DNA from: a virus
Taxonomy: Duplodnaviria > Heunggongvirae > Uroviricota > Caudoviricetes
Reading direction: 5' to 3' (one strand)
DNA length: 30,850 nucleotides
Virus record (IMG/VR): IMGVR_UViG_2563366976_000009
Coordinates: 1 to 30,850 of that record
The notes under the pieces are model-generated. The model did no database searches, was not told the DNA's origin, and saw only the letters and a list, made by a program, of their open reading frames with translations. A program made the position numbers and the translations under genes. Positions 5,597 to 27,804 of the stretch are shown piece by piece (the first letter of the stretch is position 1; the number at the start of each line of letters is the position of its first letter).

Positions 5597-6264
5597 ATAT
5601 CTACGAAAGAATTGATGGCAGCAAATACCGAAATATTTGGGTAGCTGGCGACCTGCACGGATGCTACACGAACCTGATGAACAAACTGGATACGATTGGA
5701 TTCGACACCAAAAAAGACCTGCTTATCTCGGTTGGCGATTTGGTTGATCGTGGTGCAGAGAACGTTGAATGCCTGGAATTAATCACATTCCCCTGGTTCA
5801 GAGCTGTACGTGGAAACCATGAGCACATGATGATTGATGGCTTATCAGAGCGTGGAAACGTCAATCACTGGCTGCTTAATGGCGGTGGCTGGTTCTTTAA
5901 TCTCGATTACGACAAAGAAATTCTGGCTAAAGCTCTTGCCCATAAAGCAGATGAACTTCCGTTAATCATCGAACTGGTGAGCAAAGATAAAAAATATGTC
6001 ATCTGCCACGCCGATTATCCTTGTGACGAATACGAGTTTGGAAAGCCAGTTGATCATCAGCAGGTAATCTGGAACCGCGAACGAATCAGCAACTCACAAG
6101 ACGGGATCGTGAAAGAAATCAAAGGCGCGGACATGTTCATCTTTGGTCATACGCCAGCAGTGAAACCGCTCAAATTTGCCAACCAGATGTATATCGATAC
6201 CGGCGCAGTGTTCTGCGGAAATCTCACATTGATTCAGGTACAGGGAGAAGGCGCGTGGGCATAA
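5593..6264 (+). CDS. Ser/Thr protein phosphatase (lambda orf221 / NinI-type).
   Basis: GDLHG, GDLVDRG, GNHE calcineurin-like metallophosphatase motifs; near-identical to remembered lambda phosphatase. Confidence 0.9.
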
Positions 6265-24170: not shown

Positions 24171-24560
24171 TTAACATTTTCTTTTTACTTTTCCAACAAA
24201 AGCTTTGGTTGAATCCATATTCCCATAACCAGAAATGGTTTTTGACATTAAAACTGTTCCAGTAGGATGTATTACCCATGAGTCGATAACGCGTTGAGTT
24301 TCGCCATTCGCGCCGATTCCTATGATGGAGTTTTTAGACAATGCTTTGTAAGCCATGCCGTCCGCATCTGTCCCAGAATATGTGATGCTGGCATCTTCAC
24401 CGCTTGTCTTAATGATGAATGTTCCACTAAAACCATCTTCTTCCGGATGGAAATTATTTCGTTCTGAATAGCTTATTCCGCGCATATCTCCAACGACCCA
24501 GCACTCTGCTGTAGCCCCAAAAGATATGAATAAGAACATAGCAGCAAGAAATTGCTTCAC
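24171..24560 (-). CDS. Secreted (signal-peptide) protein of unknown function, about 129 aa, in the cargo island.
   Basis: GTG start with AAGGAG RBS 6 nt upstream on the minus strand. N-terminus MKQFLAAMFLFISFGATA/ECW… is a signal-peptidase-I type signal. One Cys near the mature N-terminus and one at the extreme C-terminus. Confidence 0.5.
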   Translation of the reverse strand: MKQFLAAMFLFISFGATAECWVVGDMRGISYSERNNFHPEEDGFSGTFIIKTSGEDASITYSGTDADGMAYKALSKNSIIGIGANGETQRVIDSWVIHPTGTVLMSKTISGYGNMDSTKAFVGKVKRKC

Positions 24561-24590
24561 ACCAAGCTCCTTAGTTTTGAGCAGGATACC

Positions 24591-24956
24591 ATGAAAAAAG
24601 TTAACATTGGAAACGTACCAAAGATGCTCGTTCCGCTCTTTGAGAGCGGTACAATTGTGTTTTGTAGAGACTTTCCAGAATGGCAACGCCTGCATCAAAA
24701 ACTTGGCGTTGACGTGCATGACTCGGACGCCAACGGAGCGTCTCATACAATGAGCAGCGAGAATGGTGTTTTGCATGTGATAGGCGTGTTCAATGGCAAA
24801 CTATCTACTATTGCCCATGAGTGCGCTCACATGGCATTCGATATCTGCTCAAGGGTCGGTGTTGATGTTGAACCAGGAAGAGCCAATGAGACTTACTGCT
24901 ACTTAATGAGCAGGCTTGTTGAGTTCTGCGAGCGACATATCAAAAAGCCGGAGTGA
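24591..24956 (+). CDS. Small HExxH protein (121 aa), putative zinc metallopeptidase of the ImmA/IrrE (M78)-like type.
   Basis: Motif STIAHECAHMAFD followed about 14 residues later by E…ANE. Divergent from the secreted-protein gene, with only about 30 bp between start codons. Confidence 0.45.
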   Translation: MKKVNIGNVPKMLVPLFESGTIVFCRDFPEWQRLHQKLGVDVHDSDANGASHTMSSENGVLHVIGVFNGKLSTIAHECAHMAFDICSRVGVDVEPGRANETYCYLMSRLVEFCERHIKKPE

Positions 24957-24963
24957 CCCGGCT
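24941..24963 (-). terminator. Rho-independent terminator for the minus-strand small gene, overlapping the stop codon of the + strand HExxH gene.
   Basis: AGCCGG-agtgac-CCGGCT stem with the U-run on the minus strand (plus-strand AAAAA at 24942-24946). Confidence 0.5.
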
Positions 24964-24969
24964 TGAGTA

Positions 24970-25149
24970 TTACTTTTTGCTGTCTGGAGTTCGCTTATCC
25001 AATACCCAGCCATGACCTGGCTTTGTTGTTGGTGGAAGCCTTTCGTTGTCCTTGACGGTTGCAAAATTGTCTTTCTTACCGCCGCGTGGGCCAACTTCTT
25101 GGTATATTCCGCCGTTTTTTCCTGTGTTTTCACCTGGTTTTTTCGCCAT
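24970..25149 (-). CDS. Small hydrophilic Gly/Lys-rich protein (59 aa), YjzC-like.
   Basis: MAKKPGENTGKNGGIYQEVGPRGG… resembles the YjzC-type small-protein pattern. GAGG RBS; candidate promoter TTGACT-17-AATATT upstream on the minus strand. Confidence 0.4.
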   Translation of the reverse strand: MAKKPGENTGKNGGIYQEVGPRGGKKDNFATVKDNERLPPTTKPGHGWVLDKRTPDSKK

Positions 25150-25240
25150 GATATACCTCAACATATACCCGTTATTGGGCGATTAAATATTGATCTCATT
25201 TTATAAGTAGTCAATATGGCCCAGGTAAATGCAAAAATTA

Positions 25241-25264
25241 ACCCACCGTCAGGTGGGTTTTTTT
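25241..25264 (+). terminator. Strong, probably bidirectional, rho-independent terminator.
   Basis: ACCCACC-gtca-GGTGGGT stem followed by TTTTTT on the + strand and preceded by an A-run (U-run for the minus strand). Confidence 0.65.
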
Positions 25265-25296: not shown

Positions 25297-25482
25297 ATGA
25301 CCATAGAAGAACGTCTGAACAACATTGAGTTGAATCAAACCCTGCTTGACCAGCGACTTTCAGATCTTGAGCTTAAAGATCTAGATGTGCAAATATCAGA
25401 AGCAGAAGCCAAGCTCTCCAGCTTAAACCACCGCAGGAAGCAAATCCGCGACAGAATTACTCGTGGACGCGGAGGCTGTTAA
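25297..25482 (+). CDS. Hypothetical 61-aa coiled-coil protein.
   Basis: AAGGAAA RBS before the ATG; heptad-like leucine spacing; no family recognised. Confidence 0.35.
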   Translation: MTIEERLNNIELNQTLLDQRLSDLELKDLDVQISEAEAKLSSLNHRRKQIRDRITRGRGGC

Positions 25483-25559: not shown

Positions 25560-26096
25560 TCAAACAACCCACCAGTTTGCCTGATTGGATACCAGCCTTG
25601 CAGTTTTTATGGAATTAATTATGCCATGCTCAAGAGCCTTGTTAGCATCCAAAATGGTCGAGTCTGCTATCAGGGATGCCCACCTAATATGGGTTCCGAT
25701 GTCGATATTGAACGTCTCAACGAAGCGATCAAGATCGTTATCGAGGCATTTCCCGTACTCTCTCAATCTGGCATGGTCGGCGGCTGGGGAGGCAAAGCAC
25801 CATAATAGAGGATGTAACAGGAATCTTGATAATGGGTTTGCGAAACGTTCTGAGCCAGCCAGGAAAACGATATTAGCTATGGATTCAACATTGCTTATGT
25901 TGTGAGTTCTAACGGTAACAGGGAGTGACTTAAGAAAGTTATACGCAGTAAAGCCAGCGGCAGTTTCCCCTCCCTGACTTGATATATGGATATTTAATTC
26001 AGTTGCGCCTTGAGATAATGCGGTGAGACAGTGGTTCTGAAGTTGCCCAACAGTGGCAGTGTTAACGGGGCATAAGAAATGAATTGTGTGCAGCAT
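25560..26096 (-). CDS. ClpP-fold (Clp protease-like) serine protease, 178 aa, translationally coupled to mnt.
   Basis: …IHISSQGGETAAGFTAYNFLKSLPVTVRTHNISNVESIANIVFLAGSERFANPLSRFLLHPL… aligns with the ClpP core (INSPGG…TAG…GQAASMG…LPNSRxMIHQP). The Ser and His positions appear conserved. Its ATG overlaps the mnt stop (TAATG). Confidence 0.6.
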   Translation of the reverse strand: MLHTIHFLCPVNTATVGQLQNHCLTALSQGATELNIHISSQGGETAAGFTAYNFLKSLPVTVRTHNISNVESIANIVFLAGSERFANPLSRFLLHPLLWCFASPAADHARLREYGKCLDNDLDRFVETFNIDIGTHIRWASLIADSTILDANKALEHGIINSIKTARLVSNQANWWVV

Positions 26097-26350
26097 TATT
26101 TATCATCCTTGCCATAAATCTTTTTAAGTGTCTCAAACACAACGGCCTTGAACTGCTCTGCTTGCTGATCAGCCAAGCGTTCAGCTTCGTCTCGATAGCC
26201 TGCAATCGGTGATGGCTTTGAGAGAGCATCCTGAACGATTTGTAATAACTCAGAGTTCATTGACCTTCCGTTAGCCTCTGCTCTTAATTTCAATTTTTCT
26301 CTTACTTCCAAAGGCATACGGAAGTTAAAGTGCGGATCGTTTCTAGCCAT
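26096..26350 (-). CDS. mnt: Mnt repressor (ribbon-helix-helix), P22 Mnt-like.
   Basis: MARNDPHFNFRMPLEVREKLKLRAEANGRSMNSELLQIVQDALSKPSP… near-identical to remembered P22 Mnt. Confidence 0.85.
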   Translation of the reverse strand: MARNDPHFNFRMPLEVREKLKLRAEANGRSMNSELLQIVQDALSKPSPIAGYRDEAERLADQQAEQFKAVVFETLKKIYGKDDK

Positions 26351-26440: not shown

Positions 26441-26599
26441 ATGAAAGGAATGAGCAAAATGCCGCAGTTCAATTTGCGGTGGCCTAAAGAAGTATTGGAT
26501 TTGGTGCGTAAGGTGGCGGAAGAGAACGGGCGATCTGTTAACTCTGAGATTTACAAGCGAGTGTTGGACAGCCTGAAGAGAGAGGGGATAACGGTATGA
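26441..26599 (+). CDS. arc: Arc repressor (ribbon-helix-helix).
   Basis: MKGMSKMPQFNLRWPKEVLDLVRKVAEENGRSVNSEIYKRVLDSLKREGITV matches remembered P22 Arc. The ORF-track start at 26378 is an upstream extension through the operator region. Confidence 0.9.
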   Translation: MKGMSKMPQFNLRWPKEVLDLVRKVAEENGRSVNSEIYKRVLDSLKREGITV

Positions 26600-26817
26600 G
26601 GTTTATTGAGGTTGATGAGATTGGCTATGAGAATGCACTTGGTAGAGGTAAATCTTTAGTTAACATTGATGGCATTGAATCGATAAGGAGTGGTGAATTT
26701 ACGGAGATCAGAATGATGTCAGGCGGAATCATTCCTTGCCGTGATTCAGTAGAGTCAATCAAATCAAAAATGAGTGGTCAGTGGCTTTATAGCTACAGTG
26801 ACTTACAAAAACAGTGA
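26596..26817 (+). CDS. Hypothetical 73-aa protein inserted between arc and ant, with ATGA overlap to the arc stop.
   Basis: ORF read from the sequence; no family recognised; not part of the canonical P22 immI gene set as I remember it. Confidence 0.4.
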   Translation: MRFIEVDEIGYENALGRGKSLVNIDGIESIRSGEFTEIRMMSGGIIPCRDSVESIKSKMSGQWLYSYSDLQKQ

Positions 26818-26880: not shown

Positions 26881-27804
26881 ATGACGAGTGTAGCAATTGC
26901 AGAACATACAATCAACGTTCCATTCCACGGAACAAATCTCTTTTTGGTCAGCATTAACAATGAACCTTACGTTCCTATGAAACCCGTTGTAGAAGGCATG
27001 GGTATGGTTTGGGCTGCTCAATTTGTTAAATTAAAACAGAGATTTGTCAAAGGTATTTCGGAAATCGAAATACCTTCTGCTGGCGGTAAACAGTTAATGA
27101 TATGCCTTGCCTTTCGTAAGTTTGCGGCTTGGCTTTCAAGCATTCAGCCAAACAAAGTCCGCCCTGAAATCCGCGACAAGGTAATCCAGTATCAGGAAGA
27201 GTGTGACGATGTGCTCTACGAGTACTGGACTAAAGGCCATGTGGTTAACCCGCGCAAAGCTAAAAAGGCATTGCCGGGGAAAATCACCACTGAACAGCAG
27301 GAAGCCATTAAACAACTCGTCATGAGTCGCGGTCAGTCTCTGCCAAAAGAAAAACAGGCTAAGGCGATGATCACCATGTGGTCGTCACTGAAATCCCATT
27401 TTGGGTGTTCATACAAAGAAATCAGCGAGGAGCAGTTTACCGAAGCTCTGTCACTTGCTGCTCGCGTTCCGCTTGAAGGTGAGTTCATTGGCAAACAAGA
27501 GAAGAAAACCAACGAGCTTTCTGCAAAAGAAGCAAACAGCCTTGTATGGTTATGGGATTATGCCAACCGTTCACAGGCATTATTCCGCGAATTGTATCCG
27601 GCGCTAAAACAAATTCAATCGAACTATTCAGGCAGATGTCATGACTGCGGTTATGAGTTCTCCCGTATTATCGATATGGCGAGAGATGTTTTAATCAACC
27701 ATACACGAGATGTTGATATTAATGAGCCAGGCGGACCGACGAACCTTTCAGCATGGATAAGACTTAAGAATAAAGAATTACCTCCTTCAGTACATAACTA
27801 CTGA
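26881..27804 (+). CDS. ant: Antirepressor Ant.
   Basis: N-terminal …VPFHGTNLFLV…PYVPMKPVVEGMGMVW…PEIRDKVIQYQEECDDVLYEYWTKG parallels remembered P22 Ant; position after arc. Confidence 0.8.
   Translation: MTSVAIAEHTINVPFHGTNLFLVSINNEPYVPMKPVVEGMGMVWAAQFVKLKQRFVKGISEIEIPSAGGKQLMICLAFRKFAAWLSSIQPNKVRPEIRDKVIQYQEECDDVLYEYWTKGHVVNPRKAKKALPGKITTEQQEAIKQLVMSRGQSLPKEKQAKAMITMWSSLKSHFGCSYKEISEEQFTEALSLAARVPLEGEFIGKQEKKTNELSAKEANSLVWLWDYANRSQALFRELYPALKQIQSNYSGRCHDCGYEFSRIIDMARDVLINHTRDVDINEPGGPTNLSAWIRLKNKELPPSVHNY

Follow-up and report, generated by a model that had tools for sequence, protein, structure and literature searches.

A predicted minimal zincin encoded by hkcC, an accessory gene of P22-like phages, and its recurrent convergent neighbour orf59a

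The DNA analysed here, referred to as the window, is the 30,850-nucleotide stretch that makes up positions 1 to 30,850 of the IMG/VR virus record IMGVR_UViG_2563366976_000009. It derives from a P22-like (Lederbergvirus-type) phage or prophage; its + strand carries all of the replication, nin, lysis, terminase, portal, scaffold, coat, gp7/20/16 and tailspike genes, and a megablast comparison showed that the DNA from position 24558 onward is about 94% identical to that of P22. The gene in question is an open reading frame (ORF) of 121 amino acids (aa) on the + strand, which according to the ORF list and the sequence starts with the ATG at 24591 and ends with the TGA at 24954-24956. Based on sequence identity, this ORF is the P22/HK620 accessory gene hkcC. 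Thus, it is about 97% identical to an ORF that is present but unannotated in P22-pbi, between sieA and orf59a, and to a coding sequence (CDS) of UAB_Phi20 that is annotated as 'similar to phage HK620 hkcC', 121 aa. The HK620 and P22 genome papers already contained the gene, though with no function assigned to it, and it has been tabulated as encoding 121 aa of function unknown (PMC4837284). The RefSeq E. coli protein WP_000757525.1, also of 121 aa, is labelled 'hypothetical protein', and Pfam, NCBIfam, PGAP and PHROGs hold no name for HkcC. An initial annotation of this DNA had described a 121-aa ORF with an HExxH motif at 24591-24956; these coordinates are correct, and the motif peptide, STIAHECAHMAFD, is found in the translation. 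The features of the gene are the following:

24583..24586, + strand: AGGA Shine-Dalgarno sequence, 4 nt upstream of the hkcC ATG, read from the sequence.
24591..24956, + strand: hkcC-type CDS, 121 aa, phrog_1365, predicted minimal HExxH+E zincin.
24816..24830, + strand: codons of H76-E77-C78-A79-H80, the proposed two zinc ligands and catalytic Glu.
24885..24890, + strand: codons of N99-E100, an 'NE' gluzincin motif in which E100 (nt 24888-24890) is the proposed third zinc ligand.

A second hkcC paralogue was looked for in the window and none was found. Partial matches to the DNA of the hkcC island occur in 550 of 5426 complete E. coli genomes (about 10%), and since none of these matches reaches a coverage of >=80%, the island is highly mosaic.

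The HkcC protein matches phrog_1365, a group of unknown function, from end to end (residues 1-121, E=1.7e-39), and so do all 109 members of a set of diverse relatives. A word-indexed profile search of 5.8 billion proteins returned 278 relatives, and HMMER, run exhaustively against 1.84 billion representatives, gave 546 clusters at 50% identity (E<=1e-3), nearly all of them stand-alone proteins of 100-140 aa. Two alignments were used, one of 78 sequences (A3) and one of 109 members that share 23-44% identity with the query (A4); together they make up the 187 members that were scanned. The sole invariant columns in A4 are those of H76, E77, H80 and E100, and the first three are likewise invariant in all 78 sequences of A3. 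Because HExxH and E100 are the only columns that are invariant among 109 divergent homologues, the HExxH motif is no chance occurrence, and the metallopeptidase signature that had been noticed initially holds for all of the aligned homologues. E100 is located 20 residues past H80 in the query and 18-22 residues past it among the 109 members (mode 20); it is preceded by an asparagine (N99) in 80 of these, and Y104 is kept in 106. An HExxH motif followed by x19 and (N)E is the signature of thermolysin-type gluzincins.

The initial annotation had also pointed to a Glu followed by Ala-Asn about 14 residues downstream of HExxH. These residues are indeed present, since E94 (nt 24870-24872) lies 14 residues past H80 and is followed by P-G-R-A98-N99 and then by E100. 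However, E94 is a Glu in only 26 of the 78 and 30 of the 109 sequences, which rules it out as the third zinc ligand; the invariant Glu is E100. Cysteines were also discarded as metal ligands: C25, C78, C86 and C103 are conserved in close relatives and replaced in distant ones, with C86 being a Leu in 69 of the 109 members and C25 being variable. Some members are longer (P0155, P0208, P0225 and P0242, 173-189 aa) and consist of the zincin core plus Lys/Glu-rich, net-basic C-terminal tails of low complexity. A Pfam scan of these members detected no domain, so that domain fusions could not serve as a clue to function.

The AlphaFold2 (AF2) model, built from the 78-sequence alignment, is a confident one (pLDDT 91.6, pTM 0.85). 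It contains strands at residues 11-13, 21-25, 49-56 and 59-66 and helices at 28-37, 71-89 and 100-116. The HExxH motif lies on predicted helix 71-89 and E100 at the N-terminus of helix 100-116. The order of the elements in the model, i.e. sheet, backing helix, HExxH helix and Glu helix, fits that expected for a minimal zincin catalytic domain, and it is plausible from this model that HkcC adopts a zincin fold in which the three ligands would meet at one metal site. A Foldseek search with the model gave 27 matches at E<=1e-3 among predicted viral structures (BFVD), most of them uncharacterised. The few close neighbours in this collection that carry an annotation are two 'SprT-like' proteins (TMq 0.68 and 0.56) and a 'Metalloprotease' (TMq 0.54, E 2e-3, just above the cut-off). 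Against the PDB there was no significant match (best E 0.11), and the SprT domain of Spartan (6mdx) matched the model poorly (E 0.31, TMq 0.31).

The query itself has no meaningful match in Pfam, NCBIfam or PADLOC; its matches to lantibiotics (E 0.03-0.14) were rejected as noise arising from a Cys/His-rich stretch. Among its relatives, the most frequent weak Pfam match is SprT-like (PF10263), which was obtained for 24 of the 78 sequences (best E 0.01) and 16 of the 109 (best E 1e-4), and which the query does not match. Single sub-threshold Pfam matches of members were to DUF5700, DUF4344, DA1-like, M48 and reprolysin-type families. When the single protein was compared with PDB sequences by phmmer, thermolysin and neutral protease came out best, at non-significant values (E 0.09-0.66); the alignment pairs the HExxH...NE of HkcC with H142/E143/H146...N165-E166 of thermolysin, such that E100 corresponds to E166. 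The family profile, compared with the same set of sequences, retrieved zincins only, all of them weakly: myroilysin (0.013), the astacins BMP1/tolloid (0.11) and a peptidyl-Lys metalloendopeptidase (0.6). An hhalign comparison of the family with the sequence of an E. coli SprT, a single-sequence template with little power, was uninformative (5% probability, with the wrong region aligned). In our reading of these sequence comparisons, HkcC would represent a family of zincins that is unclassified and whose ligand set is of the gluzincin type, nearest to the loose SprT-like assemblage and distinct from M78. The metallopeptidase reading as such is supported by the conserved site.

The genomic surroundings of the gene were analysed for 340 HkcC-like loci from viral and genome collections, which fall into 52 clusters at 90% identity. 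At all of these loci hkcC is in the sense orientation with respect to the flanking late genes. The ant moron is its location in P22-like phages. For about half of the clusters, the distance from hkcC to the next downstream late gene on the same strand is at most 6 bp, and in the cases that were scanned hkcC often precedes the small terminase gene by 3-6 bp, just past the lysis/spanin genes. The small terminases encoded downstream of hkcC belong to three unrelated families (GP3_package, Terminase_2 and Sf6_terminase); otherwise, the gene at this position is a PF18894 (PhageMetallopep) gene. Other hkcC loci are found among tail or head genes. Three IMG/VR records encode two HkcC paralogues each, namely 650627081_000001 (L111 with L228/L319), 2531839002_000002 (L121 with L239/L329) and 2651869843_000001 (L138 with L227/L318). 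The two members of these P22-like pairs are about 40% identical; one is located in the ant moron by orf59a and the other 3 bp upstream of a gp3-type small terminase gene. At locus L006, a 64-aa gene (5744-5938) directly upstream of a Citrobacter hkcC homologue matches Pfam PF21825, a family whose label differs between the contig table ('Sequestin') and the Pfam scan ('crAss001_48 related protein').

The constant orientation of hkcC relative to the late genes suggests that it is made late, by read-through from the late promoter. It has been reported for P22 that polymerases initiated at PLate transcribe across the ant moron and on into the tailspike gene (PMC2629481). As no promoter-like site is located 5' of hkcC, expression by read-through of the late operon would be the simplest inference for the window as well.

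Taken together, we propose that HkcC is a minimal cytoplasmic zinc-dependent peptidase, accessory and non-morphogenetic, that is made late in lytic growth. This proposal is one that we hold with moderate confidence. In the proposed mechanism, H76 and H80 of the HExxH helix together with E100, in the first turn of the next helix, would hold the zinc, and E77 would act as general base; Y104, one turn past E100, could possibly stabilise the transition state. HkcC would then amount to little else than a bare catalytic core, made up of the sheet and its backing helix plus the active-site and Glu helices. A bare core of this type would have an open cleft, which would suit flexible peptides or protein tails. 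The gene itself is a mobile accessory gene of late operons and would not be the partner of a repressor, as ImmA/IrrE-type genes are.

Several points weigh against this proposal. Firstly, there is no profile match at a curated threshold, and homology to any defined peptidase family is unproven. Secondly, Foldseek did not match the model significantly to solved zincins in the PDB, and the convergence of the ligands is putative. Thirdly, the promoter scan found no promoter-like site for hkcC, and it is from the orientation of the gene and the P22 literature that we infer late expression. Finally, no functional study of hkcC, orf59a, YjzC or SprT-like phage anti-defense was found in the literature.

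The position of hkcC next to orf59a deserves separate attention. The initial annotation had remarked that the gene lies by the mnt/arc/ant region without an obvious cognate helix-turn-helix (HTH) partner. Its neighbourhood does lack an adjacent HTH gene, but there is a recurrent partner of another kind, the YjzC-like gene orf59a, which is convergent with hkcC. In the window, this gene and its putative signals are:

24970..25149, - strand: orf59a, a YjzC-family CDS of 59 aa with its ATG at 25149, convergent with hkcC and separated from it by a stop-to-stop gap of 13 nt.
24945..24964, - strand: hairpin terminator of the orf59a transcript, from a terminator scan, consisting of AAGCCGGGTCACTCCGGCTT and the tail TTTGATATGT, with 5 T in 8 nt.
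25186..25214, - strand: sigma-70-like promoter candidate for orf59a, TTGACT-17-AATATT, with 9/12 consensus matches.
25240..25259, both strands: strong bidirectional hairpin terminator, from the terminator scan, which separates orf59a from the genes on the mnt side.

An in-frame ATG further upstream, at 25164, would give an Orf59a of 64 aa. Sigma-70-like sites are no more numerous in this region than in shuffled sequence, and hence the evidence for the 25186-25214 promoter is weak. The terminator at 24945-24964 extends over the final codons of hkcC, its stop codon included, and P22-pbi has t mnt annotated at the equivalent place. Because it overlaps the 3' end of hkcC, the orf59a transcript would end without running antisense into hkcC. 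The stem-loop also encodes the conserved C-terminal KKPE-stop of HkcC, so that RNA structure and coding sequence are combined in one stretch.

Orf59a matches phrog_3202 (E=1.3e-31), with a weak match to Pfam YjzC, and its relatives carry the UniRef label 'YjzC family protein'. Its AF2 model is small and all-beta (pLDDT 86.8); a solved structural relative was searched for and none was found. The protein is basic (pI 9.9), in contrast to HkcC, which is mildly acidic (pI 6.4; family median pI 6.0). A convergent orf59a is found downstream of hkcC in 12 of the 52 HkcC clusters and at 143 of 160 P22-like loci, and the stop-to-stop gap measured 5-29 bp in all 13 pairs examined. The combination of hkcC with a convergent orf59a homologue of 59-61 aa is shared by the window, P22 and prophages of Klebsiella, Citrobacter, Rodentibacter, Xenorhabdus, Proteus and Serratia, among others. 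It is present in at least five phage contexts, which include the ant moron, the regions of the tail and the head genes, and the lysis-terminase junction. Across paired loci the identity of HkcC ranges from 13% to 99%, with an identity of at least 52% for Orf59a, and the two proteins diverge in a correlated manner (Pearson r=0.53, for 78 non-independent pairs). The two genes, on opposite strands, form a compact convergent cassette in the window as well as in P22 and several unrelated phages. In both directions the linkage is facultative, which rules out an obligate pairing: 40 of the 52 HkcC clusters lack orf59a, and YjzC-family genes without hkcC occur in prophages and chromosomes. In addition, 11 of 80 near-identical P22-like loci have a gene for a predicted membrane protein of 74 aa at the position of orf59a (L011 and L054; 4380-4604, - strand).

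These observations raise the question whether the two genes act together, with Orf59a, a small basic beta protein encoded on the prophage strand, being the substrate, an inhibitor or a specificity partner of HkcC, the late zincin. A pair of this kind might, for instance, serve to eliminate a factor of the lysogeny phase at the switch to lytic growth. The recurrence of the convergent pair in unrelated slots and across the wide range of HkcC identity given above, the correlated divergence, the opposite charges, the shared terminator that overlaps the hkcC stop and the predicted folding of Orf59a all speak in favour of such a two-gene switch. On the other hand, the linkage is facultative, as seen from the many clusters without orf59a, the loci with a membrane gene in its place and the YjzC genes without hkcC, and genes packed this tightly could be co-transferred by hitch-hiking. 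We therefore consider the switch unlikely, although Orf59a is the most concrete candidate, itself a doubtful one, for a partner or substrate of HkcC. A fuller version, which we also regard as unlikely, would have the two genes form a mobile module that operates in opposite phases: Orf59a would come from the antisense strand in the lysogen and HkcC from the late transcripts, and the protease would cleave, or be gated by, Orf59a, thereby resetting, at the turn to lytic growth, a lysogeny-phase function such as exclusion, host modulation or toxicity.

It could also be that HkcC is no protease at all, and that the H/E/H/E site binds a metal for structural reasons or for the hydrolysis of a non-peptide bond, or that the protein is a binding or inhibitory anti-host factor. 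HkcC is very small, and the fact that it matches neither a solved peptidase significantly nor a curated family would be in line with this. However, the joint invariance of E77 and the three ligand positions is what one would expect of catalytic zincins, and all weak neighbours in sequence and structure are peptidases, which makes this alternative quite improbable.

A further possibility is that HkcC is a SprT/Spartan-like protease that frees phage DNA of bound or cross-linked proteins at a late stage of infection, such as before packaging. The weak SprT-like Pfam matches and the SprT-like labels of the closest annotated viral structures point in this direction, as do the short distance to the next late gene in about half of the clusters, often that of the small terminase, and the Lys-rich basic tails of several longer relatives. 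Yet the HkcC core is mildly acidic, its predicted third ligand is a Glu, whereas a His occupies this position in SprT, Spartan and Wss1, the Spartan structure matches poorly, and hkcC of the P22 type is located far from the terminase gene. In view of this, we regard the SprT/Spartan-like function as very unlikely.

Least probable of all, and improbable to a high degree, is the suggestion of the initial annotation that HkcC is an ImmA/IrrE-like (M78) anti-repressor protease, which would cleave Mnt, Arc or C2 and so control immI or prophage induction: its HExxH motif, its location some 1.1 kb away from mnt/arc/ant, both in the window and in P22, and the superficial likeness of E94-x3-A-N to the 'E..AN.FA' motif of M78 speak for it, but none of the 187 members matches Pfam Peptidase_M78 (PF06114; 0/78 and 0/109, even at E<=0.1-1, and the query not at E<=1), viral models annotated as IrrE agree poorly with HkcC (TM 0.28-0.40, E>=0.02), and E94 is variable. 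In M78 proteases, a Glu-x(2-3)-Ala-Asn type motif downstream of HExxH provides the third ligand; in HkcC the invariant E100 comes after the Asn. M78 proteases are typically co-oriented and co-transcribed with a gene for an Xre-type HTH protein. No such gene is located beside hkcC in the window, and no consistently adjacent repressor gene was found in the other genomes, where the neighbours of most members are lysis, terminase, tail or head genes.

Returning to the locus, the gene upstream of hkcC is divergent from it:

24171..24560, - strand: gene for a secreted-looking protein of 129 aa, phrog_2651 (E=2.2e-60), in the slot occupied by sieA in P22.

It has a GTG start and, as judged by eye, a signal-peptide-like N-terminus (VKQFLAAMFLFISFGATA, cut before E). 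The start codons of this gene and hkcC were initially placed about 30 bp apart, and the distance is exactly 30 nt (24561-24590), or 51 nt if the alternative ATG at 24539 is used. The first 30 bp of P22 hkcC contain the PsieA promoter, which points in the opposite direction. As the identity with P22 resumes at 24558, at the GTG of the divergent gene, the coding sequence has been swapped behind a retained upstream region of the PsieA type. PADLOC defence models match neither HkcC nor Orf59a nor this divergent neighbour at E<=0.1.

On the other side, mnt (26096-26350, - strand), arc and ant (26881-27804) are located about 1.1-1.9 kb downstream of hkcC. Two ORFs were noted in the interval between orf59a and mnt. 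The first, at 25297-25482 on the + strand, is preceded by the terminator at 25240-25259 and encodes a 61-aa coiled-coil protein (phrog_7586) with a weak match to XhlA; PGAP labels some of its relatives 'hemolysin XhlA family protein'. The second, at 25560-26096 on the - strand, encodes a ClpP-like serine protease of 178 aa (Pfam CLP_protease, E=2.2e-11) that has PHROG and NCBIfam matches to ClpP-related head-maturation proteases and whose E. coli relatives are named 'ATP-dependent Clp protease proteolytic subunit' by PGAP; P22 has no gene at this place. Since the start of this ORF overlaps the stop of mnt at 26096, the two genes probably share a transcript in the lysogen. Finally, a 73-aa ORF on the + strand (26596-26817) overlaps the arc stop and fills the interval between arc and ant, where P22 has the sar antisense RNA; this ORF has no match in PADLOC.

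Few genes of the classic immunity-I/'ant moron' region of P22 are still unassigned, and hkcC and orf59a are two of them. What is new here, at the level of annotation, is the recognition of the invariant gluzincin site and of the recurrent YjzC partner; small phage HExxH zincins are familiar. One consequence is the correction of a likely route of mis-annotation, as the ImmA/IrrE label should be avoided for proteins of the HkcC family. Should HkcC be an active minimal zincin, it would stand for an unclassified family of late-expressed phage proteases, with at least 546 clusters at 50% identity, that is inserted at accessory hot-spots such as the ant moron and the lysis-terminase junction. Accessory hot-spots typically house counter-defence and host-manipulation genes. 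If the two-gene module were true, a model phage would have a new protease/small-protein switch, and the widespread YjzC family would gain a first function. As an active zincin, HkcC would offer a concrete, mutable active site (H76, E77, H80 and E100) and, in Orf59a, a candidate partner for experiments, in a system that is easy to handle genetically.

A comparison with known systems helps to place the predicted minimal zincin. With the ImmA/IrrE proteases (MEROPS M78, PF06114) HkcC shares the HExxH motif, the presence on mobile elements and the character of a small soluble protein. It differs from them in the lack of a profile match, the poor structural agreement, the variable E94 and the lack of an adjacent Xre-type repressor, and also in that its slot in most phages is the late operon and not the immunity region. 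PhageMetallopep (PF18894) proteins are, like HkcC, small phage HExxH proteins encoded between the lysis and packaging genes; they form a separate Pfam family of about 210 aa, which HkcC members did not match in the Pfam scans. At two loci, L092 (5376-6014) and L192, a 212-aa gene for a PF18894 'putative phage metallopeptidase' (E=1.4e-42) is located 4 bp downstream of an hkcC-like gene, and hence two different small HExxH proteins are encoded there in tandem upstream of the terminase genes. The SprT-like proteins (PF10263; SprT, Spartan and Wss1-related zincins) resemble HkcC as small HExxH proteins that are common in phages and plasmids; the third ligand of HkcC is predicted to be a Glu and not a His, and HkcC has no zinc ribbon or DNA-binding region. 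In thermolysin (M4)-type gluzincins, as would be the case in HkcC, the HExxH motif lies on one helix and the Glu at the start of the next, usually after an Asn. The minigluzincins proabylysin and projannalysin, stand-alone proteins of about 105-110 aa, are like HkcC (about 120 aa) in both their size and the predicted order of the structural elements.

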